Shown: positions 1,977 to 19,940 of the stretch, piece by piece
Layout: the number at the start of each line of letters is the position of its first letter
Numbering within the stretch: position 1 is the first letter of the stretch
Made by a program: the position numbers and the translations under genes
The notes under the pieces: generated by a model
What the model was told of the DNA's origin: nothing
Databases searched by the model: none
The model's input: the letters and a program-made list of their open reading frames with translations, nothing else
Assembly: GCA_963528915.1 (NCBI GenBank)
Contig: CAURWV010000003.1
Span: 24,269 to 88,268 of the forward strand
From: an uncultured Candidatus Saccharibacteria bacterium
GTDB taxonomy: Bacteria; Patescibacteriota; Saccharimonadia; Saccharimonadales; Saccharimonadaceae
DNA length: 64,000 nt
Reading direction: 5' to 3'

Positions 1977-1999
1977 TACTGACCAGACCTATACGCCAC

Positions 2000-2028
2000 T
2001 TGACTTTTTGCTGAAAAAGGTATACTAT
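2000..2028 (+). promoter_or_regulatory. candidate sigma70-type promoter for the lipoprotein gene
   Basis: TTGACT at 2000-2005. -10-like TATACT at 2021-2026 (15-nt spacer) or TACTAT at 2023-2028 (17-nt spacer). Motif match only. Confidence 0.3.
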
Positions 2029-2030
2029 AA

Positions 2031-2058
2031 GGTTGTACTTATCCTTTAACGTACAACC
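2031..2058 (+). other. perfect 8-bp stem hairpin in an intergenic/5'-UTR position
   Basis: GGTTGTAC (2031-2038), a 12-nt loop, then GTACAACC (2051-2058). No U-tract follows, so it is not a canonical terminator. Function unknown. Confidence 0.4.
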
Positions 2059-2094
2059 ATAAACCACTAATCCAGAGGAGAGGATTGAAGCTTT

Positions 2095-3021: not shown

Positions 3022-3056
3022 TGATTGAAATTTAATTTAATCATCACTTAATTCAC

Positions 3057-3090
3057 AAAAGATACCACCTACTACGGTGGTATCTTTTTC
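3057..3090 (+). terminator. rho-independent terminator after the lipoprotein gene
   Basis: AAAA, GATACCACC (3061-3069), loop TACTAC, GGTGGTATC (3076-3084), then TTTTTC. Perfect 9-bp stem with a U-tract; the A-tract upstream would allow bidirectional function. Confidence 0.8.
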
Positions 3091-3146
3091 ATATCCTTAA
3101 TCTAGTATTTTTCACTATATATTGCTACACTATCTAGTAGATAACC

Positions 3147-6100
3147 ATGAGAAGAATAAAAAAATATTTTCTACTGTTAATTGGAGCGATCTGTCTAATT
3201 TCTCTTGTAGCACTGCCCGCTCAGCGTGCCGCAGCCGAAGACGTACCATGGCCATCAGACACATCGAAAGCTATAACAGCTCTTGATGTTAACATTCTGG
3301 CAACTTGTTTCGGTAACATGAAAGGCGGTGGATATGTTTATTCTAAAGATCTAGATGATAACAAAAAAGGAAATAACTCTATAATCGCACACGGTAAAGT
3401 GCAGTCAGGTATATCATCATATGATGGCGACGGTGGCACTATGAATTGTACTAGTCTATCTAATGCCAGCATTAAAGAAATTTTTAAGGCTGCTGGCTAC
3501 ACTCAAGGTAGTTTGTATGGTATATTCTGTGATGGCACGGGACTAGCCGAATGTAGCGGAGGCTCCGATCAAAAAACAAAAATAGATTACAAAGCCACGC
3601 ATGACGCTCTAGTAAAGGCAGCACCTCTTACAAATGCGTGGAAATATTATTTGACCAGTAGAGTGTTGCATGATCAATGTGGATATGAGGATAGAGGCAC
3701 TGGCGTAAGTAGCGGTGATATGGGAGCGAGCGACGCCACCGCTAAGGTTGTCACTAGTAGCGGCAGTATCGAAGATCACGTCTATCGCCTTAAGGATACT
3801 GGAAAAAGAGTCTACCCTATGCCTATTACCGAATTCAGCGAAGATGGAACAACGTGTAAAGATTTGGTATCGTTCCTAAGCGGAAGCTGGGCGGATGAGT
3901 ACGCAGCCTATATCAAAGGCTTAGGTCTATCAGGAAATAACAACAATGGTGGTGGTAATAATAACGGTGATAATGGTAATGGCGGTGGTGGTAATGACGG
4001 AGAGAATAAAGGCGATGACGAAGAACAGTGCAAAATCGACTACTTAGGTTGGATTCTCTGTCCGATAATAAATACATTAGGAACGATATCAGATGAAGCA
4101 CAGAAACAACTTGAGCAATTTCTACACTTAAGCAATGAAGCGATCATATCTGATAGATCAGAATCTTCGCCATACGCCTATTGGTCGAGGATTCGGGATT
4201 ATGCTAATGTTTTGTTTGTTATTGCCTTCTTGGTCATTATTTATTCGCAATTAACTGGTCGTGGCATAGATAATTACGGCATCAAGAGAATGCTGCCGAA
4301 ACTAATAGCAGGCATTATATTAGTTAATGTATCATTCTACTTATGCGGATTAATGGTAGATTTATCAAATCTGATAGGGAAAGCCGCATATCAATTCATA
4401 ACCGCACCAAAAGCAGGAGATGGCGTCCCAGACGGTTCCTGGTCACAAACCGGTAATACTTTCACAGGTATAGTAGCGACAGCCACCGCCGTTACTGCAG
4501 GTTTATTCGCTATGTCTGCAATTTTATCAGCTTTAATATTTATAAGTATTACGGTTGTAACGACGGTATTTCTACTGGGAGTGCGCGAGGCTTTAGTTAT
4601 ATTATGTGTAATATTATCACCACTAGCCTTCGTCGCCATGCTACTGCCGAACACTGAAAATCTTTTCAAAAAGTGGTGGACTGTATTCAAGGCTACCTTA
4701 TTGGTTTATCCTACTATAGGTTTAATCTATGGAGCTAGTAGCTTAGCAGCAGGGATTCTTCAAGGCAGCGTCTCTGATTTAGATGCAAACAACACAGTTA
4801 GGGTTATTAAACAAGTCTTAGCCGCTGTATTAATGTTCGCTCCATTATTAGCAGTACCAAAACTAATCGCGGCAGCAATGGCTGTCGGCGGCCTTGCCTC
4901 TATGGTTGGAAGGCTTCAGGATCGTGCAAATAAGTTTCTCAACGATAGAGCTCAAAGTAAACTAGATAGTAGTACTTATGGGCAATATATGAAGCATCGG
5001 AAAGAGAAAAAAGCCCTCAGAGATGCCCAGATACAAGGCGGCTCTTTCAAAAGAAGAGGCGGTTTATTAGGACTGCGAGATCGTGCGACCCTTAGGCAAT
5101 TCCGATCTAACAGAAATGCTGGATTTAATAAGAGTAGATTCTCGGGTGATTTTGGAGATAAGCGTTCCTTGTTAGGTAACCAAGCTCTCTTACAAGAAGA
5201 TAACGAACGAATGAAAGCCGCTGATGCTTGGATCGCCAGTAATAATTTCCAATCTAATGAACTGATGACGGCAGCCACAAAAGGTATAGGAGCAGACGGT
5301 AAAAAAATATCGTCTTATCAGCAGCGCGCAGCCATGCGAGCTTTAGCTCCAATCATGACCGGGGATCAGGCAATGCAATTAGCAAATGCTACCAGTGAAT
5401 TCAGTGGTAGCGATCAAGATTCTCTACGCAAAGAAGCTTCCGCAGCTGTCGCTCAAGTGGGGGCCAAAAAAGCTCCATTCCTTGGCGGTAAACAATTAGA
5501 AGCTATGCGACAAGGAAGCTACGATCAGGACGAAGCTATTGAATATTACCTCAAGAATAAAGCCAGCGGCGCTGGTCTAGCGGGCTCAGACAAGGCAGGT
5601 GTCAAAGCAATGGTAGACGCCGCCCAAAAGGCTCAAACTAGCGGCGACAGCTCGATGATGGATAGTTTAGTGAATTCACGCGCCCAGGTTGAATCCAACT
5701 CTAGACTCAAGAGTAGTGTGGGCGAAGGTGTAGCTTCAGAAATTGAACGTATTCCATATAATGGTAAATCCGGCGGTGGTTCTGGCTCTGGCGGCGGTAA
5801 TAGCGGTGGTGGATCCGGCGGTGGTTCTGGCTCTGGCGGAGGCGGTAATAGCGGTGGTGGATCTGGCGGTGGTTCTGGCTCTGGCGGAGGCGGTAATAGC
5901 GGCACGCTAAATGTACCACATGGTGGCAGTATTCCATCGAACAGTAGTAGTTCCGCATTTAGTAATAATTCCTCACCTAGCGGAGGCGGTAATAGCGGTG
6001 GTGGATCCGGCGGTGGTTCTGGCTCTGGCGGAGGCGGTAATAGCAACAATTCCGGAGACAGAGGACCAACGATAATTAATAATTACAATAACCAAACCTT

Positions 6101-6299
6101 TACGACCAACACCAACCAAACGAATAATTTCTCTGGTAACAATAGCGGATCATCAGATAATGGAGCATCATCTCCATCAGCAAGCAATGAGGTTCCGTCA
6201 CAAAAGCCTACTAGACTTGACATAGGTAAATCCAATTCCTTTAACGATGATTACAAAAAACCAAAGCCACCAACACCACCATCAGCTGGACTTGCATAA
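3147..6299 (+). CDS. VirB6/TrbL-like polytopic T4SS membrane protein with a secreted N-domain and a long Gly/Ser/Asn-rich repetitive C-terminal tail
   Basis: Signal peptide (LISLVALPAQRAAA/EDV). A ~300-aa Cys-containing N-domain. An Asn/Gly tract (NNNNGGGNNNGDNGNGGGGNDGE). About 6-7 TM helices between aa ~350-600. A ~450-aa hydrophilic tail ends in GGGSGSGGGGNS repeats and an N/T/S/P-rich end. The VirB6-like call rests on topology, context next to PrgI/VirB4 genes, and paralogy to the ORF at 1-1976. Confidence 0.6.
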   Translation: MRRIKKYFLLLIGAICLISLVALPAQRAAAEDVPWPSDTSKAITALDVNILATCFGNMKGGGYVYSKDLDDNKKGNNSIIAHGKVQSGISSYDGDGGTMNCTSLSNASIKEIFKAAGYTQGSLYGIFCDGTGLAECSGGSDQKTKIDYKATHDALVKAAPLTNAWKYYLTSRVLHDQCGYEDRGTGVSSGDMGASDATAKVVTSSGSIEDHVYRLKDTGKRVYPMPITEFSEDGTTCKDLVSFLSGSWADEYAAYIKGLGLSGNNNNGGGNNNGDNGNGGGGNDGENKGDDEEQCKIDYLGWILCPIINTLGTISDEAQKQLEQFLHLSNEAIISDRSESSPYAYWSRIRDYANVLFVIAFLVIIYSQLTGRGIDNYGIKRMLPKLIAGIILVNVSFYLCGLMVDLSNLIGKAAYQFITAPKAGDGVPDGSWSQTGNTFTGIVATATAVTAGLFAMSAILSALIFISITVVTTVFLLGVREALVILCVILSPLAFVAMLLPNTENLFKKWWTVFKATLLVYPTIGLIYGASSLAAGILQGSVSDLDANNTVRVIKQVLAAVLMFAPLLAVPKLIAAAMAVGGLASMVGRLQDRANKFLNDRAQSKLDSSTYGQYMKHRKEKKALRDAQIQGGSFKRRGGLLGLRDRATLRQFRSNRNAGFNKSRFSGDFGDKRSLLGNQALLQEDNERMKAADAWIASNNFQSNELMTAATKGIGADGKKISSYQQRAAMRALAPIMTGDQAMQLANATSEFSGSDQDSLRKEASAAVAQVGAKKAPFLGGKQLEAMRQGSYDQDEAIEYYLKNKASGAGLAGSDKAGVKAMVDAAQKAQTSGDSSMMDSLVNSRAQVESNSRLKSSVGEGVASEIERIPYNGKSGGGSGSGGGNSGGGSGGGSGSGGGGNSGGGSGGGSGSGGGGNSGTLNVPHGGSIPSNSSSSAFSNNSSPSGGGNSGGGSGGGSGSGGGGNSNNSGDRGPTIINNYNNQTFTTNTNQTNNFSGNNSGSSDNGASSPSASNEVPSQKPTRLDIGKSNSFNDDYKKPKPPTPPSAGLA
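5769..5903 (+). repeat. in-frame tandem repeat, 45/48-nt unit, ~2.9 copies, encoding S-G-G-G-S-G-S-G-G-G-G-N-S-G-G-G
   Basis: Copy 1 at 5769-5813 (45 nt, one Gly codon shorter). Copy 2 at 5814-5861 (48 nt). Partial copy 3 at 5862-5903. The copies are near-identical at nucleotide level. Confidence 0.9.
5982..6044 (+). repeat. dispersed fourth copy of the same Gly/Ser/Asn repeat unit
   Basis: GGAGGCGGTAATAGCGGTGGTGGATCCGGCGGTGGTTCTGGCTCTGGCGGAGGCGGTAATAGC is nearly identical to the unit junction at 5838-5900. It is separated from the tandem block by ~80 nt of S/N-rich coding sequence. Confidence 0.85.
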
Positions 6300-6319: not shown

Positions 6320-7258
6320 ATGGCAGAATACAAAGTAGCACAGGATGTTGAAGCCGAAGATAAATTAATTGGACCATTCAGTTTCCGACAATTTATCTAT
6401 TTGATCGTGGTGGCTATCTGTATCGCCATGGCCTGGGGATTGAGCCAGATTTTTATCGCCTTGGCATTGATACCTCTACCCTTTATATTACTCTTCGGCG
6501 CATTAGCATTACCGCTACGCAAAGACCAGCCAATGGAGATATATCTAGCGGCAATAGTGTCGTATATGTTAAAACCACGCAAGCGTGTGTGGGAACCGGA
6601 CGGTGTTGATTCTCTAATACAGATAACCACACCAGAAGTTGTCGATGAGCACCTCACCAAAGAACTGACTCAATATGAAACCGAAAAACGCCTATCGTAT
6701 TTGGCCAATATTGCTGACACCGAAGGATGGTCGATTCGTCATGCTACCGCACCAGTCCCTAATAGTTCAATGAATCCTGACCAATACTATGCAGCACAGC
6801 AGACTGTAGACGTGATGGATGACGATGGTGGTGTAGCTAGGAAGTTCGACACTATGATAGCTCATGCCGATCAAGATCGCCGTACTCAGATTATGCAAAA
6901 TATGCGTCAAACACAGCCTACATCAGCACCGTTACCGCAGTCGCCAAGCATACCTGACGATCATAGCGATATTCAAAATGGTCGTGTATCAAAATTCAAT
7001 CCGTATCCTACTATTCATCAAACCGTTATACAGCCAAGGAGAACAGACGACAAGCAACCACCACATAATCAAATTAACCAACCTAATACACAGAACCATA
7101 ATGGCGTGAGACAACCAAATATTAGCACTAACATCACGTCAGATGCTATAATGAGTATAGCTAATAATAGCGGTTTGTCAGTCGAGACTATACAGAGGGA
7201 AGTTGACAAGCTCAAGAAAAATAACGATGATAGTGAAATATTCGTATCATTACACTAA
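6320..7258 (+). CDS. PrgI-family (VirB3-like) T4SS membrane protein with a Q/P/N-rich C-terminal extension
   Basis: The N-terminus AQDVEAEDKLIGPFSFRQFIYLIVVAICIAMAWGL followed by a second TM matches the PrgI-family pattern (acidic motif, then a two-helix hairpin). It sits directly upstream of VirB4-related genes. The C-terminal ~150 aa are low-complexity Q/P/N/T-rich. Confidence 0.6.
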   Translation: MAEYKVAQDVEAEDKLIGPFSFRQFIYLIVVAICIAMAWGLSQIFIALALIPLPFILLFGALALPLRKDQPMEIYLAAIVSYMLKPRKRVWEPDGVDSLIQITTPEVVDEHLTKELTQYETEKRLSYLANIADTEGWSIRHATAPVPNSSMNPDQYYAAQQTVDVMDDDGGVARKFDTMIAHADQDRRTQIMQNMRQTQPTSAPLPQSPSIPDDHSDIQNGRVSKFNPYPTIHQTVIQPRRTDDKQPPHNQINQPNTQNHNGVRQPNISTNITSDAIMSIANNSGLSVETIQREVDKLKKNNDDSEIFVSLH

Positions 7259-7270
7259 ATAATAGAAAGG

Positions 7271-8206
7271 ATGGGTATGCCGCCAGATCAGCAGAAACTA
7301 GCGCCGCAATTACCGTCACCGAATAATGTCGGTTCCGGACAAAACCCACCTGTACCGCCTATGAATAATGGCGGTCAAAGCATCAACCAGATGAGCCCCA
7401 ACAGCTCTACTCCGGAAGACCCTAATAGTCAAAACTCTTCAAACTCCAAGAAAAAGAAGCAACAAAAGGCCAAATCAACAAGTACTCAAAACACCTTACT
7501 GTTTTCGGAATTAAGAGATAGTATGGTTATCATGGGTGACGGGTCGTTCCGAGCAGTAGTAGCCTGCAAATCTATCAACTTCGATCTTATGAGTTCGCGC
7601 GAGCGTGATGGCGTCGAGTTGAGCTACCAGGATTTCCTGAATGCCCTGTATTTTCCAATCCAAATATTTGTCCGTTCGCAACGTGTCGATATTGGTCCAT
7701 ATTTAGATAAACTTGAAAGCTTCCGTGTCAACGAAGACAACATGCTTCTAGGTGTACTGATGGACGATTATATCAATTTCATTGATGTACTGTCCCAAGA
7801 GGCGAATATCATGGATAAGAGTTTTTTCGTGGTGATCCCATATTTCCCAACAGGCGACACTGTCAATGTCATGCAGCAAAGTAAAGGATTTTTTTCGATG
7901 GTGTTTGGCGGCAATAAAGATCCCGTCACCAAAATTAATAAAGAAACTTATATCAAAGCTAAGGAAGAAATCAAAAACCGAGTCGATTCTGTAATTGGCG
8001 GTTTAATGCGTGTCGGCGTACAATCTATACAGCTCAATACCAAGCAGCTCGGAGAGCTTTATTATAATATATATAACCCCGATACGGCCGTACGCGAGCC
8101 GCTTGGCGACTTCCACGAGGTAGCCTCGTTGTATGTACGTAAAGGTACCGAGAAAGATAGAGAAAAAGAAGCTAATCCGTTTATCAATAATAGAGGAGTA
8201 TCCTAG
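7271..8206 (+). CDS. soluble protein resembling the N-terminal domain of Gram-positive VirB4/TraE ATPases, with no P-loop
   Basis: An 80-aa P/N/Q/S-rich disordered N-terminus. Then MGDGSFRAVVACKSINFDLMSSRERDGVELSYQDFLNALYFPIQIFVRSQRVDIGPYL, the pattern seen at the start of conjugative VirB4-type proteins. No Walker motifs. The TAG stop (8204-8206) overlaps the GTG start of virB4. Confidence 0.45.
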   Translation: MGMPPDQQKLAPQLPSPNNVGSGQNPPVPPMNNGGQSINQMSPNSSTPEDPNSQNSSNSKKKKQQKAKSTSTQNTLLFSELRDSMVIMGDGSFRAVVACKSINFDLMSSRERDGVELSYQDFLNALYFPIQIFVRSQRVDIGPYLDKLESFRVNEDNMLLGVLMDDYINFIDVLSQEANIMDKSFFVVIPYFPTGDTVNVMQQSKGFFSMVFGGNKDPVTKINKETYIKAKEEIKNRVDSVIGGLMRVGVQSIQLNTKQLGELYYNIYNPDTAVREPLGDFHEVASLYVRKGTEKDREKEANPFINNRGVS

Positions 8207-10059
8207 TGGCGCATAAGAAAAAAGCTGATCCGATAGATATCGCCGCGCAACAACGCGAACGCGAACAAGCCGAAGTAGAGCAGGCATTCTTGAAGGGTAT
8301 GAATACGCTGCGTGATTTGATAGCGCCAAGCAGTCTAGAAATCCACTCAAGCTATTTCCGTATCGGTACTAAATACGGCAGAACTATATATGTCTACGGT
8401 TATCCGCGACTACTATATACCGGCTGGTTATCAGGAGTTATTAATATTGATCAAGTCATCGATATTAGCATGTTTATTTATCCTGTAGATACCGCCGTTG
8501 TTTTAAAGAACTTGCGCAAAAAAGTGACTCAGCTTGAGGCTGATATGGCTCTTAATGCCGAAAAAGGTAAGACTCGCGACCCGGGTAAAGAAGCAGCCCT
8601 AGCTGACGCCGAGGAGTTACGTAATGAATTACAAGTAGGTTCGGAACGTTTCTTTCGTTACGGATTGTATGTAACTATTTACGGCGACAGTCTTGAAGAG
8701 CTGGGCTATATACAGCACACTATCGAAACAATTTTTGGACAAATGTTGATTTATAGTAAAACCGCTTCTAGCCAACAAGAACAAGGTTTAAACAGTACAG
8801 TACCACAAATGAGCGATCAATTACAGATTCGCCGTAATATGAATACTGGAGCAATTAGTACTAGCTTTCCATTTACAAGCGCTGATTTAACTCAAGAAAA
8901 CGGTATTCTATACGGCATTAATATGCACAACAACGGCCTAGTTATCTTTGACCGTTTTACTCTAGAAAATGCCAATATGGTAGTCTTCGCGAAATCTGGT
9001 GCTGGTAAATCATTCACTGTCAAATTAGAAGCCTTACGTAGTATGATGATGGGCGCTGATATCCTAATAATAGACCCAGAAAACGAATATCAAAAGTTGT
9101 GCGATGCTGTCGGCGGCAGTTATACGCGGCTAAGTTTAAGTAGTGATACACGTATTAATCCGTTCGATTTGCCAAAAATAATTGACGGCGACGAAGCAGA
9201 TGACGCTCTGCGCGCTAATCTAGTAACATTACACGGATTACTGCGGCTAATGCTAGGTGGTGCTTCAGCAAATAATGCTGGCATCGGCTTGTCGCCAGCC
9301 GAAGAGGCTGACCTAGATCAGGGATTAATTGACACTTATGCTCGCGTTGGTATTACTAGCGACCCGCTTACGCATACTTCTGTACCACCGACAATGGGTG
9401 ATTTATATGATACGTTATTACACATGGGCGGTACCGGCCCACAGCTAGCGCAGCGCTTACGTAAATATACTACTGGTACTTTTGCTGGTATTTTCAGTCA
9501 GCAAAGCAACATAGATATCAATAATAATATGGTGGTATTCAATATTCGCGATCTCGAAGATGAATTGCGACCAGTGGCAATGTATATCGTCCTTAGCCAC
9601 ATCTGGAATATTGTCCGTACCCAACAGAAAAAACGTATGTTGATCGTCGACGAAGCCTGGCAGCTGATGAAATATGACGATTCAGCGAACTTCATGTTCA
9701 GCCTGGCCAAGCGCGCCCGCAAATATTATTTAGGCTTGACGACTATCACTCAGGACGTCGAAGACTTTATGGGTAGCAAAATGGGCCGCGCTATTGTTTC
9801 GAACTCATCGATGCAGCTACTGCTGAAACAATCATCTAGCGCTGTCGATGTGCTAGGCGATGTGTTTAAATTAACCGAAGAAGAGCGCAAGCGTTTAGCT
9901 AATTTCCCGGTCGGACAAGGCTTATTTTTCGCTGGACAGAACCACGTTCACATCCAAGTCATCGCCAGCGATACCGAGACTGGTTTGATTACTACTAATC
10001 CACAAGCTACCTTACAACAGGCTGCAGCTGCTGCGTCGTCAGAAGGGCAGACACAATAG
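8206..10059 (+). CDS. virB4: T4SS ATPase VirB4 (PrgJ/TraE/TrbE family)
   Basis: Walker A AKSGAGKSF, Walker B MLIVDEAW. Typical VirB4 N-region (GYPRLLYTGWLSGVINID) and C-terminal motifs (TTITQDVEDF, LLLKQ). GTG start at 8206 with RBS AGAGGAG at 8192-8198. Confidence 0.9.
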   Translation: MAHKKKADPIDIAAQQREREQAEVEQAFLKGMNTLRDLIAPSSLEIHSSYFRIGTKYGRTIYVYGYPRLLYTGWLSGVINIDQVIDISMFIYPVDTAVVLKNLRKKVTQLEADMALNAEKGKTRDPGKEAALADAEELRNELQVGSERFFRYGLYVTIYGDSLEELGYIQHTIETIFGQMLIYSKTASSQQEQGLNSTVPQMSDQLQIRRNMNTGAISTSFPFTSADLTQENGILYGINMHNNGLVIFDRFTLENANMVVFAKSGAGKSFTVKLEALRSMMMGADILIIDPENEYQKLCDAVGGSYTRLSLSSDTRINPFDLPKIIDGDEADDALRANLVTLHGLLRLMLGGASANNAGIGLSPAEEADLDQGLIDTYARVGITSDPLTHTSVPPTMGDLYDTLLHMGGTGPQLAQRLRKYTTGTFAGIFSQQSNIDINNNMVVFNIRDLEDELRPVAMYIVLSHIWNIVRTQQKKRMLIVDEAWQLMKYDDSANFMFSLAKRARKYYLGLTTITQDVEDFMGSKMGRAIVSNSSMQLLLKQSSSAVDVLGDVFKLTEEERKRLANFPVGQGLFFAGQNHVHIQVIASDTETGLITTNPQATLQQAAAAASSEGQTQ

Positions 10060-10082: not shown

Positions 10083-12941
10083 ATGCCACTGGGTACATCA
10101 AAGAAATCAAACACTGATTACGACGACAACGTCGACAATCTTGACGCCCATAAACAAGAAGTTCAATCGCCAAGCCAGGCGCATTGGGATAATACTGTCG
10201 GTCAAAACCTATCAGGCATGGAAAATAGGAAAAAAAATACCTATAACGATGAAAACTACTCTGATAGCAATGCTGCTAGCGATATAGGCGATCAAGAAAA
10301 TCAATCTAGACAACCTGGATCAGATTGGACAAATAACACATCCAAGAAACGCGACAAAGAAAAAAAAGGTAGAAAAGGTTTTGTTAAACGTTTCGGTGCT
10401 ACTGGCGCTGTTCTTGGCTTATTAACTGGCGGCGTACTTGGCATTGGCGGATCGACAGGCGTCATGGGTTCTTTGCTAATATCTGTAAAAGAACAGGTAA
10501 TGACAGTTCTTGATCAGCAACATTATACTTCTATGTCGCGATCAAATCGTATATTAGTACGGCGTCTAGCTGATGAATCTACAGCAGGGTCATGTACTCT
10601 TATCAAGTTCGCCTGTCGATACACTAAACCAACAAGTTATCAGCTCAAGCAACTAGAGAAATCCGGCATTAAAGCACTCGATAAAGATGGCAATGTTATC
10701 GAAGAGAATAAGCTAATTGGCGGCACCAGGCCAACTCATTACGAAATCGACGGAGAAAAAATATCAGCGAAAGACTTTAAAAAAACAATCAGAGAAAATC
10801 CTAAGGTTCGCAGCGCTTTTCGCCGCGCTCACAATCCGCGCTGGGTTAACTGGGTCGACGATAAAGCAGTTAAGCTATTCGAAAAACTTGGTATCGGTAA
10901 ACGACTATCCGAAAAACTCAGAAAGTCTAAACGTTCTAAGAATGATCTAGCCGAAGTAACCGACGAGTTATCAAAAGCTGAAAACAAATCCGGCGACAAA
11001 ATCAAAAAAGAGATAGCTGATGAAGCCGGGAAATTCGCCGAAAAAGAAGCGAAAAAATCTACCAAAAAGACTCATGACGCCAAGCTAATGATGGCACAAG
11101 TGGTATGTGCTGCTGCACGAGCCCCAAATGTTCTTGTTAATATACAACGTAGCTATCGTATTGCACAATATGCTAAAATTGGCTATCAATTTCTGACTGT
11201 GGCTGACGCTATCAAAAAAGGTAAAGCCACGCCAAAATTAGTCGAAAACGCCGCAACTATCCTGACTCAAACCTACAAAAAATCCGACGGCACTATCAAA
11301 AAATCAGCTATGGACTCTAGTTTGATGAAATATAGTTTAGGCTTGGGTGTATCTGGTAATAAATCATCATACATACCAGGCGTCGGCGGCACTATGGCTA
11401 AGTATTTACAAATCGTCAATAGCGGCGCTGTCAAGACCGGTTGCGATTTGGTTAGCTCGACAGCCGCAGAAGTCGCAGTCGCCGTATTTGACGGTATCAA
11501 AAATGGATTGGGACCTATAGGCTGGGCGTGGACAGCTGGTGAATTCGCTATTGAGGGCATTCTATCTATCGACAGTGTGCAAAAAAAGATCAGCGAAGGG
11601 ATAGGCGATATTGTACAAACCGCTGTCGACAAATTCGGAAGTCTAGTTGATTTTAATAAAATCGCTGAGTATTTCCTTGGCGACAAAACCAAAGGAGCGA
11701 TTGGCACTGATATTGGTGATATAAGCGGTATTGCCTGGTCAAATAGTATGGCTGACCAAGCCAGCTACGTTGGGAATTCACCACTCACCCTACCGCAAAA
11801 AGCCGCCTACGACGAACATATCGTCAAACCGGAACGCGTAGCTATGGCCGAAGAAGATCGCTTAAATCACAGCCCGTTTGATATATCTAGTCCGAACACA
11901 TTTCTAGGCTCTATAGCTATACGATTCTTACCATATTTAGGTTCGGTCTCAAATCCTTTATCATTCATCTCTGCGATTTCATCAATCTCTAGTTCATCCT
12001 TATTCAATTTCACTAGCCCAGCAGCTTACGCCAAAAACGTCATTAACTCTAACAAATGCAGTCAAGATGCACTGCTAGCAGCTGAATCTGACATAGCCGT
12101 CGGACCAGCCTGCGATGTGCAATATGGCATACCAAATGAATACATGGGTATCGAGCCTGACCAAGTAGCTAGCGAGCTGAATTCAATGGGGCAAATAGAC
12201 GAAGATGGCAACATCGTAGATGGTAGTGAATTAAAAGAATGGACAGAAACCTGTAATGTGGCCAGCAGTATAAATATCAAAGGATGTGTCGTTAATGAGA
12301 GAAAATACGCATTGTTTGGTCTATACCAGATTGACAAACGGGCGATAGACGATATGGACGAGGATCCCGACGCATTCAAAAATGGATCGCTAACCCAAGA
12401 ACAACAATCAGAAGAAGAGAATTCATCTGGCGCTAGTTCGGCTATTGGCGAGCCAGAATTTGAGCAAGCCCAACCATTATCAGAAGCAGAATCAAGAGGC
12501 GATCCAGATAACCCAACGTGGCCAGGCAAAGAGAATGGCAAAATCGCCGACTCTGATCTAGCAGAATTATCCTTTGCTCCTGGACAAAGGATGTATAAAC
12601 AAGCAGCAGAAGCTATGGAAGAAATGAATAAAGCCTACAAAGCAGAAAAGGGTGCAGACTTCCAAGTAAATTCAGCTTACCGCTCCTTCGAAGAACAAGA
12701 AAAACTATTCTCAAGCGGCCAAACTGCAGCTAGAGGCGGTAGATCAAACCATGGTTGGGGGTTAGCTATCGATATCCAGGTAGGCGACTTTGGTTCAGAT
12801 ATTTATAATTGGCTTAAAGCGAACGCTCACAAATACGGCTTCGTACACCCGCCTTGGGCAGAGCCAGCACCTGCTCAACCTGACGGCAAAAGACACCAAC
12901 CCGAGCAATGGCATTGGGAATATGCTAGGAGAGTATACTAA
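10083..12941 (+). CDS. large membrane-anchored protein with a C-terminal M15 (VanY-type) zinc D-Ala-D-Ala carboxypeptidase/peptidoglycan hydrolase domain
   Basis: ~100-aa disordered N-terminus. One Gly-rich TM (GATGAVLGLLTGGVLGIGG). A ~650-aa domain of unknown family. The C-terminus carries SAYRSFEEQEKLF, SNHGWGLAIDI and EQWHWEY, matching the VanY/M15B SxYRS, SxHxxGxAxD and WH motifs. Confidence 0.8.
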   Translation: MPLGTSKKSNTDYDDNVDNLDAHKQEVQSPSQAHWDNTVGQNLSGMENRKKNTYNDENYSDSNAASDIGDQENQSRQPGSDWTNNTSKKRDKEKKGRKGFVKRFGATGAVLGLLTGGVLGIGGSTGVMGSLLISVKEQVMTVLDQQHYTSMSRSNRILVRRLADESTAGSCTLIKFACRYTKPTSYQLKQLEKSGIKALDKDGNVIEENKLIGGTRPTHYEIDGEKISAKDFKKTIRENPKVRSAFRRAHNPRWVNWVDDKAVKLFEKLGIGKRLSEKLRKSKRSKNDLAEVTDELSKAENKSGDKIKKEIADEAGKFAEKEAKKSTKKTHDAKLMMAQVVCAAARAPNVLVNIQRSYRIAQYAKIGYQFLTVADAIKKGKATPKLVENAATILTQTYKKSDGTIKKSAMDSSLMKYSLGLGVSGNKSSYIPGVGGTMAKYLQIVNSGAVKTGCDLVSSTAAEVAVAVFDGIKNGLGPIGWAWTAGEFAIEGILSIDSVQKKISEGIGDIVQTAVDKFGSLVDFNKIAEYFLGDKTKGAIGTDIGDISGIAWSNSMADQASYVGNSPLTLPQKAAYDEHIVKPERVAMAEEDRLNHSPFDISSPNTFLGSIAIRFLPYLGSVSNPLSFISAISSISSSSLFNFTSPAAYAKNVINSNKCSQDALLAAESDIAVGPACDVQYGIPNEYMGIEPDQVASELNSMGQIDEDGNIVDGSELKEWTETCNVASSINIKGCVVNERKYALFGLYQIDKRAIDDMDEDPDAFKNGSLTQEQQSEEENSSGASSAIGEPEFEQAQPLSEAESRGDPDNPTWPGKENGKIADSDLAELSFAPGQRMYKQAAEAMEEMNKAYKAEKGADFQVNSAYRSFEEQEKLFSSGQTAARGGRSNHGWGLAIDIQVGDFGSDIYNWLKANAHKYGFVHPPWAEPAPAQPDGKRHQPEQWHWEYARRVY

Positions 12942-14071
12942 TGAAGAAAAACTACTTATTGCTGTTTGTGACGGTAATAACCGCATTGTTTACTACTCCC
13001 AGAGCCTACGCTCTAGAAATACCAGATGCCAACAACGATATACTTTTCTATTCAGAAAAAGCGGCTAGTGGCTGTAGTAATGCTACCGGTGAACTAGTAG
13101 GTAACGATAATCTCGAGAAAATATACAACTATTTCATATCGCAAGGATTGTCTCCAGAGCAAGCTGCCGGTGTAGTCGGTAATATAGCGCAAGAATCAAA
13201 AGGCGACCCGACAATAGTTGAAGGAGGTAATCACACTGAAGACCCATCTGGTGTTAGTGGTGGATGGGGAATTATCCAGTGGACTCCAGGGTCAAAAGTT
13301 CTCGGTATCGCTAAGCAGGCTGGTATTACTGGTGACATATCGAAACTCGAAACTCAACTCCAAGTCGTCTGGTGGCATATGACCACACAGACACCGACTG
13401 GCGTTGCTAACTTCATCGAACAATACAAAACAGTCACTGATGTCAGAGCAGCTACCGACTTGTATGAGAAAAAAATGGAAGCCGCCGGCATACCTAACAT
13501 GGCGAACCGCTACGCTGCCGCCGAGCTAGCCCTCAGCACATATGGTAAGGGGTCGTCTACCACCACATCGTCTGGGAAAAATTGCGGTGGTGGCGCGGTA
13601 GCTGGCAGTGCCATCGAGACAGCCAAAAACTATGCCTGGCCAACATACGAAAGAGGTAAGACTGAGAAAAAACCCGAATACGAAACTGCTATTCAAAAAA
13701 CAAAATCAGAAGGCGGATTCGTCGGCGATAGTTGTTTCGGCGGCGGAGTCGATTGCGGCGCCTTCGTCACTCGCGTCATGCAGGATAGTGGTGCTGACCC
13801 AGAATACAACCCCGAAAAAGGCAACACTAGCGCACAGCTGAACTATGCTATGAATAGTCCAAAATACGAAAAAGTCGACCCTGGCGACGTTAAACCTGGC
13901 GATATTGCAATTCGCTCTGGACACACCTATCTATACATCGGTGAGGTTGAAGGTTTCGAAACACAGGTGGCATCTGCATCACAATGTGAACATGCGCCAA
14001 TGTCAGCACATGAAGGTGTTGGCGACCCGTCATACTCTTGGTTTAGACTAAAGGGAGGTTCCAAAGAATGA
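12941..14071 (+). CDS. secreted bifunctional cell-wall hydrolase: lysozyme-like (phage tail-tip lysozyme type) N-domain plus NlpC/P60- or CHAP-like cysteine peptidase C-domain
   Basis: Signal peptide ending PRAYA/LE. LSPEQAAGVVGNIAQESKGDP...GWGIIQWTPGSK matches the tail-tip-lysozyme family pattern. The C-domain has DCGAFVTRVM (catalytic Cys context) and GDIAIRSGHTYLYIG (His context). Its ATG shares one nt with the upstream TAA stop (12939-12941). Confidence 0.78.
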   Translation: MKKNYLLLFVTVITALFTTPRAYALEIPDANNDILFYSEKAASGCSNATGELVGNDNLEKIYNYFISQGLSPEQAAGVVGNIAQESKGDPTIVEGGNHTEDPSGVSGGWGIIQWTPGSKVLGIAKQAGITGDISKLETQLQVVWWHMTTQTPTGVANFIEQYKTVTDVRAATDLYEKKMEAAGIPNMANRYAAAELALSTYGKGSSTTTSSGKNCGGGAVAGSAIETAKNYAWPTYERGKTEKKPEYETAIQKTKSEGGFVGDSCFGGGVDCGAFVTRVMQDSGADPEYNPEKGNTSAQLNYAMNSPKYEKVDPGDVKPGDIAIRSGHTYLYIGEVEGFETQVASASQCEHAPMSAHEGVGDPSYSWFRLKGGSKE

Positions 14072-14700
14072 ATTACGAAAAAAGGAGATTAATTATCATT
14101 ATTGCAGCAGCAGTGTTTGTTGTCGCTATACCGGTAATATTATACATAATACAGCTAATAAACAATGCCGATAAAGTTCGTATTACTATCACTACTTCGC
14201 CGACCGACGCCAAAGTTTACATTGATGGTAAAGAGACTAGCCACGATCTATACGTAACGCCGGGCAAGCACGCTGTCTCAGCTAAAAAAGATGGTTTCAA
14301 GGATGCTGAAACTTACCAATATTTTTCGAAAGACAGTGATAGTACTACTTTAGTATTATCACCTAATTCCGAAAAGGCTAGAAAATGGGCGAAAAACCAT
14401 TCATCAGAAATACAACGTGCCTACGACATAGCAGCTAACCAACGCGGTAAAGCGATGCGCGAACAATACAAAATTATGAACATCTTGCCACACACTGACA
14501 TATCAGGCCCGTATAAAATTAGCTATTCCTACTATGGCCGCGACTATACCGATATAAAAGTTTATATATCGTATTCCACACCATCCGGGCGCAAGGCTGC
14601 TCTAGCTTGGCTAAAAAGTAAAGGTTATGATCCAACTACGCTCAACATAGCAATCAGAAGTTACGTTAATCCACTGACGGGGAAAGTCTATGACAACTAA
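14068..14700 (+). CDS. bitopic membrane protein with an extracytoplasmic PEGA domain
   Basis: N-terminal TM (LIIIIAAAVFVVAIPVILYII). Then ITITTSPTDAKVYIDGKETSHDLYVTPGKHAVSAKKDGFKDAE, which matches the PEGA pattern. ATGA overlap with the upstream gene. Confidence 0.6.
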   Translation: MNYEKRRLIIIIAAAVFVVAIPVILYIIQLINNADKVRITITTSPTDAKVYIDGKETSHDLYVTPGKHAVSAKKDGFKDAETYQYFSKDSDSTTLVLSPNSEKARKWAKNHSSEIQRAYDIAANQRGKAMREQYKIMNILPHTDISGPYKISYSYYGRDYTDIKVYISYSTPSGRKAALAWLKSKGYDPTTLNIAIRSYVNPLTGKVYDN

Positions 14701-15310
14701 ACGTATTTTATCAATTATTTCAATAATTGTTGTTTCGATTATACTGATTATAATTATAAACTTTGTTTCTTCGCATTCGCTAGTGCAAGTTAATTTCGAA
14801 AACACTTCTAGTGTTGTCGCCTACAGCGATAAAGATAGGAATAATAAAATTGCCGTTTCACGATCTGGCGATCGAGTATGGCTTGCCAAAGATATCAAAT
14901 ACTCTATAGAGTACAAGGGTAGTAACGGCTACGCAAACGGAAATATAACTGCACAGCACCCATTTGATACAATCTCAATTAAACCAGATTACTCGGCCGA
15001 GAAGTATAAGTCGCTTATGTCGGCAGCACTGCCCGACATCAACTCCTTAATTCAAGATAAATATCCGAAAGCTAAAGAATCATACGCTATCCAGCCTAAA
15101 GCTATGCGCGATTTCGGCAAATGGTTCTTAATTGCACTCAAATACACCAAAGAATATAGTACCAAATCCGACACACTATATATTCTTGCTACAAAAGACA
15201 ACTCAAAATGGACACTCAAAACAAACGCTGAGGTATTTTTCCGCTCAAACGATTACCGATCAATTAATACCGAAATATTGTCGTGGGCTAATGAGCAAAT
15301 TATTAAATAG
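14690..15310 (+). CDS. bitopic membrane protein, unknown function (possible VirB8/TcpC-like scaffold)
   Basis: N-terminal TM (ILSIISIIVVSIILIIIINFV) followed by a ~170-aa alpha+beta extracytoplasmic domain. It overlaps the upstream gene by 11 nt and is the last gene of the plus-strand cluster. Confidence 0.5.
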   Translation: MTTKRILSIISIIVVSIILIIIINFVSSHSLVQVNFENTSSVVAYSDKDRNNKIAVSRSGDRVWLAKDIKYSIEYKGSNGYANGNITAQHPFDTISIKPDYSAEKYKSLMSAALPDINSLIQDKYPKAKESYAIQPKAMRDFGKWFLIALKYTKEYSTKSDTLYILATKDNSKWTLKTNAEVFFRSNDYRSINTEILSWANEQIIK

Positions 15311-16310
15311 CTAAACGATTAGCGCTAGTCATCACAATCTGATTATCAACAAATTCGCTCAGCAGACAATCTTGGCGGTGTTGATCTAGTTCACCGAAGA
15401 CATCATCTAGTAGAATTAGTGGTTTTTTGCCAGTTTGTTGCTCAATATAAGATGCTTCAAGAAATTTTAATGACAGGACAATCGTTCGCGCCTCACCGCG
15501 AGAAGTAATTTTGGAAGCCGGATTACCGCCAAAATATATCGCCAAATCATGCCGGTGCGGACCAATACTAGTAGCGCCAATCGCCTTATCGTAGTTAGTT
15601 TTTTCTTCATATTCTCTGAGGAGTTTCTGAGCCGACACCTCGCTTTCGTGAGAATATTTCAGGCTAATTTTGTCATTTATAGAAGCGATTCTTCGATAGA
15701 TATCAGTTATTTTGCTATCAAAATCACGTATTACGGCTTGGCGTTTGTTGATAATTTTGGCACCATAATCACTCAATATCAGATTCCAAGAAAATAATTC
15801 ATCATCGCTTAGTAGCGGGTTCTTGAGTAATTTATTGCGCTGCAATAGGGCGCGATTATAGCAACTCAATTCGTGCGAGTACGATGAATCATATTGCTGG
15901 ATAAGTCCATCTATAAAATCTCGACGGCGCTGCGGCGAACCATTAATAATCCTTAGTGCATCCGGTTCGAACAATACAATTGGATATTTGAGAACATACG
16001 GCATGCGACCGTATTTCTTACCGCCAATAACGAATTGTTTTCGCTTAGAACTATATTGATTTTGATAAATCACATGATATTGCAGTTCATCAGTTACTAC
16101 ATCTATCTGATACATTTGTGCACCATAAGAACAAATTGATTCGTCGCTGCCACGAAACGATTTACCGCGCAAAGCAATATATAGCGCTTCAATTAACGAC
16201 GTTTTACCGCAACCGTTAGGGCCGGAGATTAAGGTCGTTCCCGGTTCTAAATCTAGCGTTTTGAGCGAATGAACGCGGATGTTTTGGACTGCTAGCCGCG
16301 ATATTTTCAT
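15303..16310 (-). CDS. recF: DNA replication and repair protein RecF
   Basis: N-terminal LAVQNIRVH...GPNGCGKTSLIEALY (Walker A). SMC-like signature and Walker B region (ILLDDVFGELD). Position after dnaN. Confidence 0.9.
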   Translation of the reverse strand: MKISRLAVQNIRVHSLKTLDLEPGTTLISGPNGCGKTSLIEALYIALRGKSFRGSDESICSYGAQMYQIDVVTDELQYHVIYQNQYSSKRKQFVIGGKKYGRMPYVLKYPIVLFEPDALRIINGSPQRRRDFIDGLIQQYDSSYSHELSCYNRALLQRNKLLKNPLLSDDELFSWNLILSDYGAKIINKRQAVIRDFDSKITDIYRRIASINDKISLKYSHESEVSAQKLLREYEEKTNYDKAIGATSIGPHRHDLAIYFGGNPASKITSRGEARTIVLSLKFLEASYIEQQTGKKPLILLDDVFGELDQHRQDCLLSEFVDNQIVMTSANRLAI

Positions 16311-16311
16311 A

Positions 16312-17412
16312 TCAGCTCTTCAACGGCATAATTATATGAGTATAGTCTGGATTATCGGCAGCAGGAGACAAGACGCATGGCGATAATTTACCACTGAAAC
16401 GGAAATCGACTCTATCGCTATCAATGACGCTTAGCGCATCGGTGATATAGCGAGAATTAAGCGTGATAACACCGCTATTAATCGTCTCGGCGTCAATCGA
16501 GCTAGTATTTTCGCCAAGTTCACTAGCAATAGAATGAATACTAATATTTTGCTTATCACTATCGACCGTTACTGTCACACTGCCGCCAGAACTGCGCGCA
16601 AACAAGCCGGCAATCTTAACGATCCGTGCAAAATCATCCATCTTGACGCGCGCTGACGTTTCAGAAGTCGCCGGAATAAGCTGTTGATATTTCGGGTAGC
16701 TGCCTTCGATCAGACGACTAGTTATTTCGGAATTATCTACCCGAAAACGCACTTGTTCGTCATCAAACAACACCTCGACTTGATCAGTGCTATCCGATAT
16801 TGTTCGTAACACCTCTTGCAAACTTGTTGTTGGTACAATTGCCGCGATCTCACTAGTTGTATCGAATAATCGACGCTGCGCTAGTCTATAACCATCAGTT
16901 CCCGCTAGATATAGTTTACCGTCATCCGTATGCCAATAAACACCCGTCAATACTGGGCGCGATGTATCATTGCTAGTAGTAATAATCGTCTGATTAGTCG
17001 CTTGCTTGAAGTCGGAAACGGCGATAGTATAAGCAACAGCCTGATTTTCATCAATCGATGGTAGTTCTGGAAATTCGCTGGCATCAGTTCCTGACATAAT
17101 TGATGAATAATTACCTGAAGTGATAGTCATTGATGCACCTTTACTAGCTATATCAACCGTACCACGCGGCAGACTAGCGATAAATTCACTAATCAGCTTC
17201 GCTGGTAGAGTCATCTCGCCCGGCTTAACGATCTTAGCGCCAATATAGCAGGTCGCAGCGATTTCTAGATTAGTAGTCGCTACTAATAGTCTGTTACCTT
17301 CTGTGCGCAATAATACATTACTAAGTATTGGTAGTCCAGCACGATTACTAGCTATGCGCCCAACGATAGTTAACGCGCGGGCGAAGTTTTCTTGAGTGAC
17401 AGATAGCTCCAT
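16312..17412 (-). CDS. dnaN: DNA polymerase III beta sliding clamp
   Basis: 366 aa. The N-terminus ELSVTQENFARAL...ILSNVLL...LLVATTNLEIA and three-domain length are typical of DnaN. Position immediately downstream of dnaA. Confidence 0.93.
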   Translation of the reverse strand: MELSVTQENFARALTIVGRIASNRAGLPILSNVLLRTEGNRLLVATTNLEIAATCYIGAKIVKPGEMTLPAKLISEFIASLPRGTVDIASKGASMTITSGNYSSIMSGTDASEFPELPSIDENQAVAYTIAVSDFKQATNQTIITTSNDTSRPVLTGVYWHTDDGKLYLAGTDGYRLAQRRLFDTTSEIAAIVPTTSLQEVLRTISDSTDQVEVLFDDEQVRFRVDNSEITSRLIEGSYPKYQQLIPATSETSARVKMDDFARIVKIAGLFARSSGGSVTVTVDSDKQNISIHSIASELGENTSSIDAETINSGVITLNSRYITDALSVIDSDRVDFRFSGKLSPCVLSPAADNPDYTHIIMPLKS

Positions 17413-17680
17413 AATTATTACCTTAATTCCTTTTTATAATTTAGTAACGTTTATAGTAGGTATTGTGGACAATGGGGAAAAGTATGATTTTAACAGATGA
17501 AAACAGTCATACTTAGCAGGAGGAAAATTAGCGGAAAAATAGCTGGAAGTATGTAGTAAAAATAGATAGTTTATCCACGCAGATACTGTCTGTGATATCA
17601 GATAGCACCAAACGGTGGATAAATGAACACAGTTTTTACTCGAAGCTTTGAACTGGATGTACACATTTTTTACACAGATA
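17413..17680. other. dnaA-dnaN intergenic origin segment (DnaA boxes plus an AT-rich stretch)
   Basis: DnaA-box-like 9-mers: TGTGGACAA at 17464-17472, TTATCCACG at 17571-17579, GGTGGATAA at 17614-17622. A strongly AT-rich stretch at 17411-17460. Non-coding 268 bp. Confidence 0.55.
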
Positions 17681-19039
17681 TTAAGCATAAAGTTTCTCCC
17701 GGATTTCGGCGACCTGCTCGCGAATTGTTAAGTCAAGTTTGATGGCTTTTTCGATTTTATTAACAGAGTGAATGGCGGTAGTGTGATCTTTGCGGCCAAG
17801 CTCTTGGGCGATGCGCGGAAAACTCATGTGTAGTTCGCTGCGCAGCAGGTACATAGCGATTTGCCGCGGCGTGGCGATATATTTGTCGCGCTTGCTGCTG
17901 CACATTTCTTTGCTGTCAATTTGAAAGTGGCGGGCAGTTTTATCGACGACCTGCTTGGCGGTAAGGTGTTGCGGCCGGGTTTTTCGGACATTGCCGAGCA
18001 ACCCTTCGGCGGTGGCGGCATCGGGCGTGGTACCGCGCATTTCCGAGTAGGCGAGCAACTGGTTGAGTGCGCCCTCTAACTCGCGGACATTAGTTTTGAT
18101 ATTTTGCGCTAGGTATTCAATAGTTTCGCGCTCAAGCGTCACACCAGACATACTAGCCTTGGTTTCGATGATGACGCAGCGAGTTTCAAAATCGGGCATT
18201 TGAATATCAATTGCCATACCCCACTCAAAGCGGCTGCGTAGTCGCTCAGTCAATGTCGGGATGCTACGTGGCGGCTTATCGCTACCGATAATAATTTGTT
18301 TATTCGCCTGATGTAGTGCATTAAAAGTATGAAAAAATTCTTCTTGAGTCTTTTCTTTACCGGTGATGAACTGCATGTCATCAACAATTAATACATCTAC
18401 ATTGCGGTATTTATCACTGAAACCGGCGATTTTGAAGCGAATACTATCCAAGAACTCCTTAGTGAAAGTCTCAAAGCTGACATAAGCTACTTTCATCTTG
18501 GGATTGCGTTTGACGATCTCATTGCCAACAGCTTGAATAAGATGAGTTTTACCGAGTCCAACGCCGCCGTATATAAAAAGCGGATTATATTTAGTACCAG
18601 GGTTGGCGGCAACAGCCTGGCATGCAGTATAAGCCAGGTCGTTGCAGGATCCGACTACGAAATTATCGAAGGTATACCGCGGATTAAGCGTGATGCCAGT
18701 AGTCGACGTTTTGTTGCTAGATGACGTGTGATTAATTAGTTCATTTGCGCGATCACGTAGCGAGGCTGTGGTTTCGCGACTGGTAATCTTTTTTTTAGCA
18801 TTTTTAACTTGATAATTAACGTTTCTAGCGTCGAGATTATTTTTTTTGAGGACTTCGCGGATTTGCTTATCAAAACGCTTTTCTAACTGCGATTTGGCAA
18901 AAACATTAACCACACCTATGGTAACCGTATCTTTGTTATAGGATAATAGCTCGGTATTGCGAAACCAAGTTTCAAAATTCGCGTGTGATACAGACAATTC
19001 GATTTCCCCTAAAACGCTTTGCCATAATGAATTGTTCAT
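17681..19039 (-). CDS. dnaA: chromosomal replication initiator DnaA
   Basis: AAA+ Walker A GGVGLGKTHL, Walker B VLIVDDMQF. C-terminal DNA-binding domain (RQIAMYLLRSELHMSFPRIAQELGRKDHTTAIHS). Preferred start is ATG 19039 (MNNSLWQ); the track start at 19060 is a GTG 7 codons upstream. Confidence 0.95.
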   Translation of the reverse strand: MNNSLWQSVLGEIELSVSHANFETWFRNTELLSYNKDTVTIGVVNVFAKSQLEKRFDKQIREVLKKNNLDARNVNYQVKNAKKKITSRETTASLRDRANELINHTSSSNKTSTTGITLNPRYTFDNFVVGSCNDLAYTACQAVAANPGTKYNPLFIYGGVGLGKTHLIQAVGNEIVKRNPKMKVAYVSFETFTKEFLDSIRFKIAGFSDKYRNVDVLIVDDMQFITGKEKTQEEFFHTFNALHQANKQIIIGSDKPPRSIPTLTERLRSRFEWGMAIDIQMPDFETRCVIIETKASMSGVTLERETIEYLAQNIKTNVRELEGALNQLLAYSEMRGTTPDAATAEGLLGNVRKTRPQHLTAKQVVDKTARHFQIDSKEMCSSKRDKYIATPRQIAMYLLRSELHMSFPRIAQELGRKDHTTAIHSVNKIEKAIKLDLTIREQVAEIREKLYA

Positions 19040-19060
19040 TTTGATGATGTATACCCTCAC

Positions 19061-19523: not shown

Positions 19524-19874
19524 ATGATTGCATCAAAATATCGGTTTCACGGACATGGTAGTCTGAAGTTTTTATACAAAAACGGTCGAGTTATTAGATC
19601 GCGTTATTTCACGGTCAAATATATTACCAACCGCTACCGATCTAATCCACGTTTTGCCGTAGTAGTCAGCAAAAAAGTTCATAAATCGGCAGTTGGGCGC
19701 AATCGTATTCGTCGTCGAATTTATGAGCGACTACGTATCGATGTTCTGCCGCGTGTTAAAAATGTCGATATAGCAGTTATTGTTACTAGAAGCGAGACTC
19801 TAAATTTACCAGCAGACGAACTAAAATCGTCGCTGGATGCGGTTTTTACGCAAGTATACACTGATATCAGCTGA
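19524..19874 (+). CDS. rnpA: ribonuclease P protein component
   Basis: 116 aa and basic. Contains FAVVVSKKVHKSAVGRNRIRRRIYE (RNR motif). Conserved rpmH-rnpA-yidC order. Confidence 0.9.
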   Translation: MIASKYRFHGHGSLKFLYKNGRVIRSRYFTVKYITNRYRSNPRFAVVVSKKVHKSAVGRNRIRRRIYERLRIDVLPRVKNVDIAVIVTRSETLNLPADELKSSLDAVFTQVYTDIS

Positions 19875-19940
19875 TTATTTACCTTCGAGATGATATAATG
19901 ATACAGATGGTATTTGCAATGAGGAGAATATAAGTTTTTT

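Follow-up and report, generated by a model that had tools for sequence, protein, structure and literature searches.

A probable two-gene peptidoglycan-hydrolase component of a chromosomal Saccharibacterial type IV secretion system and the shuffling of its modules between lineages

Here we analysed a window of 64,000 nucleotides (contig CAURWV010000003.1) from the chromosome of a member of the Saccharibacteria (TM7), and in particular two adjacent genes that lie directly 3' of the gene for the VirB4 ATPase of a type IV secretion system (T4SS). The initial annotation of this DNA had described at 10083-14071 two adjacent T4SS proteins of 952 and 376 amino acids, had assigned to them three different peptidoglycan-cleaving modules, and had read the set as equipment for breaching the wall of another cell. 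Both open reading frames (ORFs) are present on the plus strand, at 10083-12941 (952 amino acids) and 12941-14071 (376 amino acids), the stop codon of the first overlapping the start codon of the second (TAATG), and they occupy the positions of SEML1_0007 and SEML1_0006 in Southlakia epibionticum. Their assignment to a T4SS also stands, since genes for PrgI, a TrsD-like protein and VirB4 are found in the same operon, which runs on the plus strand from the left edge of the window to 15310, contains the hydrolase pair and shows overlapping stop and start codons (TAATG, ATGA) at several gene junctions. All close relatives of both hydrolases come from metagenome-assembled genomes of Saccharibacteria, mainly oral or gut ones, and tblastn detected no paralogue of either elsewhere in the 64-kb window.

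The 952-residue protein is predicted to be bitopic and is conserved across Saccharibacteria (37-100% identity), its orthologues being flanked by VirB4 and the lysozyme gene in every locus examined. At its C-terminus we recovered the proposed zinc peptidase of the VanY/M15B type (residues 836-948; 12588-12926, plus strand), which matches the Pfam family VanY (PF02557) above the gathering threshold, at 56 bits against a cut-off of 25 (E = 4.5e-15), and which carries the motifs SAYRS (864-868), SNHGWGLAIDI (888-898) and EQWHWEY (941-947). The M15B catalytic set is intact and consists of Arg867 (in SAYRS), His890 and Asp897 (H-x6-D), and Glu941 and His944 (EQWH, ExxH). These motifs align with the Zn ligands and the ExxH of the solved VanXY D,D-peptidases (5hnm, 6a6a), and their residues are invariant in 6 VanY-type tails. 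While the motifs are thus preserved, the label of D,D-peptidase acting on D-Ala termini is, to judge from sequence, over-specific, because the M15B family includes LD-carboxypeptidases (LdcB) as well as phage endolysins, and VanY, LdcB and phage endolysins (actinophage and Bacillus-phage) all match the domain to a similar, weak extent. A hydropathy scan found a single Gly-rich membrane anchor at residues 104-135 (10392-10487, plus strand) preceded by a basic stretch, which under the positive-inside rule suggests an N-in/C-out topology with about 815 residues outside. The predicted extracytoplasmic body of about 700 residues ends in the peptidase.

The 376-residue protein combines two domains, and it is a short form that has no N-terminal glucosaminidase domain. 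Its first residues form a signal-like sequence (MKKNYLLLFVTVITALFTTPRAYA, ending in AYA immediately before LE) that we read as a predicted Sec signal peptide (12941-13015, plus strand), and the aligned homologues also possess an N-terminal hydrophobic segment, all of which is consistent with export via Sec. The terms "anchored" and "secreted" given earlier to the two proteins agree with the hydrophobic segment of the first and the leader of the second, and both are predictions from the amino acid sequences. The lysozyme-like module described as a tail-tip lysozyme was recovered as a Phage_lysozyme2 domain (PF18013; residues 56-198; 13106-13534, plus strand), a muramidase of the type of phi29 gp13, at 101.8 bits against a cut-off of 28.2 (E = 4.6e-29). 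Its Glu85 aligns to the catalytic Glu45 of gp13 and is invariant in 37 homologues; a profile search of the PDB retrieved gp13 at E = 6e-21, and an AF2 model of the whole protein (pLDDT 86.5) matched gp13 in Foldseek (E = 3e-5, probability 1.0).

The third module, occupying 13589-14056 (plus strand) and described initially as an NlpC/P60- or CHAP-like cysteine peptidase, is the weakest of the three domain calls. The assignment is sustained by its family, as a divergent NlpC/P60-type domain, although the window protein by itself falls below the Pfam cut-off. Thus, 21 of the 37 full-length homologues matched NLPC_P60 at E <= 0.1 (best 9e-7), and the family profile matched E. coli Spr/MepS (E = 1e-4) in an alignment that pairs the catalytic Cys and His. 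No homologue departs from Asp271-Cys272 or His328 (37/37), in keeping with the NlpC/P60 pattern of a catalytic Cys at the start of a helix and a His on the following strand, and the position of the third His of Spr varies in the homologue alignment, being Ser, Glu, Ala, Asn or Asp. Foldseek searches with the whole 376-residue model were dominated by the lysozyme domain, and we therefore used a model of the cysteine peptidase domain alone (pLDDT 94.6), whose matches, though weak, were all to wall hydrolases with a papain-like fold (NlpC/P60, CHAP, Tse1 and the hydrolase 4hpe).

Upstream of the pair, the same strand encodes VirB4 itself (8206-10059; Pfam P-loop_TraG, AAA_10 and DUF87), a TrsD/TraC-like protein that resembles the N-terminal region of VirB4 (7271-8206; NCBIfam TrsD, E = 0.002, with orthologues matching Pfam PF26593, TraC-like) and a PrgI/VirB3-like protein (6320-7258; Pfam PrgI, 44.5 bits). 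Three further components (39-6299, plus strand), none of which has a Pfam match of its own, were assigned by synteny with the related locus L005 and with SEML1_0013, SEML1_0012 and SEML1_0011: the end part of a TrbL/VirB6-like protein (39-1976; TrbL_3 in L005), a 308-residue protein with a twin-arginine-like leader (2095-3021) and a 1050-residue polytopic membrane protein (3147-6299). The C-terminal part of the last (5500-6299) is a long low-complexity repeat tail rich in Gly, Ser and Asn (GGGSGSGGGNSGGGSGGGSGSGGGGNS..., repeated), and the N-terminal regions of the PrgI, TrsD-like and 952-residue proteins are likewise long and of low complexity. Downstream, a membrane-anchored protein with a PEGA domain (14068-14700, plus strand; Pfam PEGA and a transmembrane segment), equivalent to SEML1_0005, starts within an ATGA overlap with the stop codon of the 376-residue gene. 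It is followed by the last gene of the operon, encoding a 206-residue protein anchored by a transmembrane segment (14690-15310, plus strand), at the position of SEML1_0004, which is kept in the related loci.

The T4SS cluster adjoins the replication origin, because recF, dnaN and dnaA (15303-19060, minus strand) lie directly next to the operon and face away from it. They are followed at 19524-20870 (plus strand) by a 116-residue ORF at the position of rnpA (Ribonuclease_P in related loci) and by a yidC-like gene (Pfam 60KD_IMP). This location agrees with the description of the Patescibacterial T4SS as derived from the monoderm MPF-FATA class and often placed near dnaA (PMC12102498). To examine how constant the arrangement is we compared 39 related Saccharibacterial loci, 7 from metagenome contigs and 32 from GTDB species genomes, the locus search being seeded with a 5-sequence alignment, and in all 39 the gene order beside dnaA/dnaN/recF was the same. 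It is also the order of S. epibionticum ML1 (dnaA-dnaN-recF-0004-0005(PEGA)-0006-0007-0008(VirB4)-0009-0010(PrgI)), where transposon sequencing scored SEML1_0004 to SEML1_0010 all as essential (Wang et al. 2023, PMC10633639 Tables S1/S2). In that strain SEML1_0006 was annotated as glucosaminidase plus phage tail lysozyme plus cysteine proteinase, and the C-terminal end of SEML1_0007 as a Hedgehog/DD-peptidase fold (PMC10633639). The likeness to the window pair, from the same phylum, locus and order, is one of annotation and gene position. Differences are that the 376-residue protein lacks the N-terminal glucosaminidase of SEML1_0006, and that Pfam clearly recognises the tail in the window as VanY/M15B but gave no match for SEML1_0007.

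Taking these results together, we consider it probable, on the basis of sequence and gene context, that the two genes form the peptidoglycan-hydrolase component of a chromosomal T4SS of monoderm type, equivalent to VirB1, PrgK, TrsG or CwlT and distributed over two proteins. As is typical of hydrolases of monoderm T4SSs, they lie in a T4SS operon beside VirB4 and encode both glycosidase and peptidase domains, which are predicted to be located outside the membrane. In this model the 952-residue protein would be held in the membrane of the producer by one N-terminal helix, with its extracytoplasmic body of some 700 residues ending in the M15B peptidase, and the 376-residue protein would leave the cell via Sec, its gp13-type muramidase joined to an NlpC/P60-type cysteine peptidase. 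Both are encoded in the operon that also specifies VirB3, TrsD and VirB4, and their local cleavage of glycan and stem-peptide bonds would open a way through a wall of Gram-positive type for the secretion channel and, in this phylum, for its pilus. The wall opened would be at least that of the producer itself. A similar role has been proposed from comparative work, in which peptidase and lysozyme homologues just downstream of virB4 may take the role of VirB1 (Quinonero-Coronel et al. 2025, PMC12102498). The pair is hence already annotated and scored as essential in the model strain, and it belongs to the known equipment of Gram-positive-type T4SSs.

The presence of three modules had been taken as a sign of attack on a foreign wall, under the premise that a typical T4SS needs one VirB1-like lytic enzyme. 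That argument fails because the premise holds only for Gram-negative systems. In Gram-positive systems the T4SS hydrolases are normally multi-domain, as in PrgK of pCF10, with LytM, a muramidase structurally homologous to phi29 gp13, and CHAP (PMC11323569), and in TraG of pIP501, with SLT and CHAP (PMC11323569, PMC12102498), so that the number of modules is uninformative as to whose wall is cut. PrgK of Enterococcus faecalis, which also belongs to a monoderm T4SS and is a membrane-anchored protein with extracellular hydrolase domains, has in common with the window pair a trio of domain types, namely a zinc metallopeptidase, a gp13-like muramidase and a papain-like Cys/His peptidase. The two sets differ in that PrgK is one polypeptide of a DELTA-class T4SS and not the product of two genes, that its metallopeptidase is of the M23/LytM type with a degenerate active site whereas that in the window is M15B with all motifs intact, that its cysteine peptidase is CHAP rather than NlpC/P60-like, and that it serves conjugation, whereas the Saccharibacterial system has no relaxase nearby. 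Three modules are therefore what T4SS ancestry predicts, and they give no sign of a special target. The gp13 protein of phi29 (PDB 3csq/3csr) offers a parallel outside T4SSs: its N-terminal lysozyme domain is homologous to that in the window with the catalytic Glu conserved, and both proteins join a glycosidase to a peptidase, but gp13 is a phage tail protein with an M23 peptidase domain in place of the NlpC/P60-like one. Some Saccharibacterial orthologues carry lysozyme plus M23, as phi29 gp13 does.

Conjugative plasmids present the same arrangement. Searching plasmids by tblastn with the 376-residue protein, we found the lysozyme domain in genes named phage tail tip lysozyme on Gram-positive plasmids, most of them predicted to be conjugative. 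In Lactococcus pMRC01 (pGO1/pMRC01-type), genes for TrsD, VirB4, a membrane protein and, at the TrsG position, a phage tail tip lysozyme follow the order of the window, and Glutamicibacter nicotianae pGnB68 (L042, 3567-10628) matches it with VirB4, a 736-residue protein, a hydrolase with SLT and cysteine peptidase domains, and a PEGA protein. The cysteine peptidase domain of the pGnB68 hydrolase is 35% identical (E = 1e-18) to that of the window, and the PEGA protein that follows it is homologous as well; its glycosidase is SLT, in contrast to the gp13-type domain of the window protein, and the protein that the plasmid encodes after VirB4 and before the hydrolase bears no relation to the 952-residue one and has no peptidase tail. 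These similarities hint that this part of the Saccharibacterial T4SS may have a common origin with conjugative elements from Actinobacteria, the phylum to which the hosts of Saccharibacteria belong. They also bear on whether the two genes could encode autolysins with a housekeeping role in growth, budding or the separation of cells, and simply be neighbours of the T4SS genes. All three domain families do occur in ordinary autolysins, and S. epibionticum has elsewhere in its genome a non-essential phage-tail-lysozyme paralogue, SEML1_0667 (PMC10633639). Yet such a role would leave unexplained the strict synteny with VirB4 over the 39 related loci, the overlapping stop and start codons within the operon and the occurrence of the same arrangement on conjugative plasmids, which play no part in the division of their host cells, and we consider it very improbable.

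Comparison of the loci identified, in addition, a feature of the pair that appears to be new. The hydrolase modules at the fixed slot downstream of VirB4 are shuffled between lineages. In the 40 loci, window included, the protein that follows VirB4 ends in a VanY tail in 14 cases (among them the window), in a domain with four invariant residues (H, D, H-x-H; hereafter H..D/HxH) in 19, in M23 in 3 and in an NlpC-like domain in 1, the tail being absent in 2, or in 3 if the unrecognised low-complexity tail of L009 is counted. The H..D/HxH tail, of the type of protein P0138, had no match in Pfam and none in the PDB by sequence or profile, and when its profile was compared with that of the VanY tails, the alignment was confined to a 14-column H..D motif (probability 3.9%). 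From the four invariant residues we infer that it may be a zinc peptidase of LAS type. The gene downstream varies as well: Phage_lysozyme2 is present in 33 of its 34 distinct proteins and is joined by a glucosaminidase in 25 (a domain also found in SEML1_0006), with NlpC/P60, M23, Amidase_3, M15_4, GH3, C39_2, GDSL and CHAP as other partners. Among these 34 proteins, a glycoside hydrolase family 3 domain (E = 1.6e-43) occurs in one and Peptidase_M15_4 (E = 1.9e-17) in another. The orthologue of the post-VirB4 protein in L008 (1622-6013) has 1463 residues and carries a nuclease/phosphatase-type domain (Exo_endo_phos) besides M23. In some more distant lineages one or two small N-terminally anchored ORFs of 133-164 residues per locus stand between the peptidase-tailed and the lysozyme gene (L006:5588-6004, L007:5510-6004, L009:4206-4691, L037:8676-9080, L039:8902-9736), two of them being homologous to each other (37% identity). 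The window has none between its hydrolase genes, and these ORFs could be regulators, immunity proteins or accessory subunits.

The exchange is sharpest in the oral clade, where the bodies of the post-VirB4 proteins are 93-100% identical and yet VanY and H..D/HxH tails interleave. Proteins P0103 and P0138 have 97% identity over residues 1-793 and are unrelated beyond. At the DNA level the loci L001 and L003 differ by a block of about 600 bp without similarity (L001:10379-11003 against L003:10379-10983), whose equivalent in the window is 12450-12941; their identity is 97.7-99.9% on the upstream side of this block and 92% on its downstream side. The C-terminal peptidase is thus a cassette of about 600 bp that alternates between two forms in oral strains. 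We found no prior description of a recombining tail cassette in the literature searched, and this too appears to be new. Replacement of a C-terminus on a conserved body is also what would be seen in polymorphic toxins, and the hydrolase domains could be conceived as antibacterial effectors delivered to kill or lyse the host or competitors, like the peptidoglycan-hydrolase T4SS effectors of Xanthomonas, with the weak likeness in fold of the cysteine peptidase domain to the type VI secretion system effector Tse1 as a further point in common. In conflict with such a function, both genes belong to the core set, are essential and keep the same syntenic position in every locus examined, and a Sec-type leader on one protein and a membrane anchor on the other are unsuited to T4SS substrates. 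The swapped block contains no separate ORF, and consequently no immunity gene travels with the cassette. The initial annotation had advised a search for cognate immunity genes nearby, and none was found: the PEGA and 206-residue genes downstream are conserved anchored accessories of the T4SS, present also in a plasmid T4SS. The number of modules and the PEGA neighbour are both inherited from this T4SS class, and the PEGA gene is not an immunity gene. An effector role is accordingly one to which we give hardly any credence.

Whether the enzymes act mainly on the wall of the host deserves closer consideration. Under this alternative they would work on the thick actinobacterial wall at the site of contact and give the pilus or channel of the T4SS access to the host membrane. 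In this phylum the T4SS has no relaxase or coupling protein nearby, possesses pilins and is needed for epibiotic growth, as shown in S. epibionticum (PMC10633639, PMC12102498), which makes action on the host wall plausible. Further in its favour, the lysozyme domain belongs to a family used by phages that enter from outside, similarity links the M15 tail to endolysins of actinobacterial phages, the body outside the membrane is long and could serve as a spacer, and a shuffling of modules that extends to near-identical strains is what would be expected if the substrates depended on the host. Against it, conjugation T4SSs of monoderms normally have modules of this number and these types, which therefore do not discriminate, so that the inference from three modules to foreign-wall breaching does not follow; essentiality in an obligate epibiont is silent on whether the wall cut is that of host or producer; no host-binding domain was found; variation of modules could equally be neutral replacement by equivalent enzymes; and PrgK was calculated to reach only mid-way through the donor wall, its authors concluding that it works on that wall (PMC11323569). 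Nothing in our data favours the wall of the host over that of the producer, and we regard a mainly host-directed activity as possible but rather unlikely.

Several results also weigh against the explanation that we prefer, a T4SS hydrolase component that opens at least the wall of the producer. Of the three domains of PrgK, the muramidase alone showed activity in vitro, LytM and CHAP acting as regulators (PMC11323569), and intact motifs are therefore no guarantee of three activities. For the third module, the window protein alone scored 14.6 bits with NLPC_P60 (PF00877) against a cut-off of 23 (E = 0.033), a single-sequence search of the PDB retrieved no NlpC/P60 structure, and the Foldseek matches of the domain were weak (best E = 0.08, TM 0.35-0.5). 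BLASTP showed no similarity between the 952-residue protein and the 736-residue protein at the same position on pGnB68, so that the body of the former has no homologue in the plasmid T4SS. Finally, a rapid swapping of modules between near-identical strains is not obviously expected if only the presumably invariant wall of the producer is opened. The behaviour of the cassette fits selection by variable substrates, but a neutral swap of equivalent enzymes explains it equally. The earlier interpretation is partly supported, in that its domain calls and T4SS context were right and the argument built on them was not.

As first stated, the hydrolase pair adds little to what is known, being conserved, already annotated and a mirror of the hydrolases of Gram-positive conjugation. 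The comparative result, a modular and recombining slot, may be more useful than the pair itself. The T4SS is among the few machines shown to be essential for the epibiotic lifestyle of Patescibacteria, Saccharibacteria included, and the shuffled hydrolase slot together with the dimorphic tail cassette gives a concrete handle, through comparison of the module set with the host species, on whether these enzymes ever meet the wall of the host. We hold it doubtful, more so than host-wall action as such, that the modules are directed to the host wall in such a way that the interchangeable tail cassette, whether VanY, H..D/HxH, M23, NlpC-like or absent, and the variable partners of the lysozyme protein correspond to the chemotype of the wall that the actinobacterial host possesses. 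If this were nonetheless true, host-matched hydrolase modules would be a determinant of host range in Saccharibacteria.

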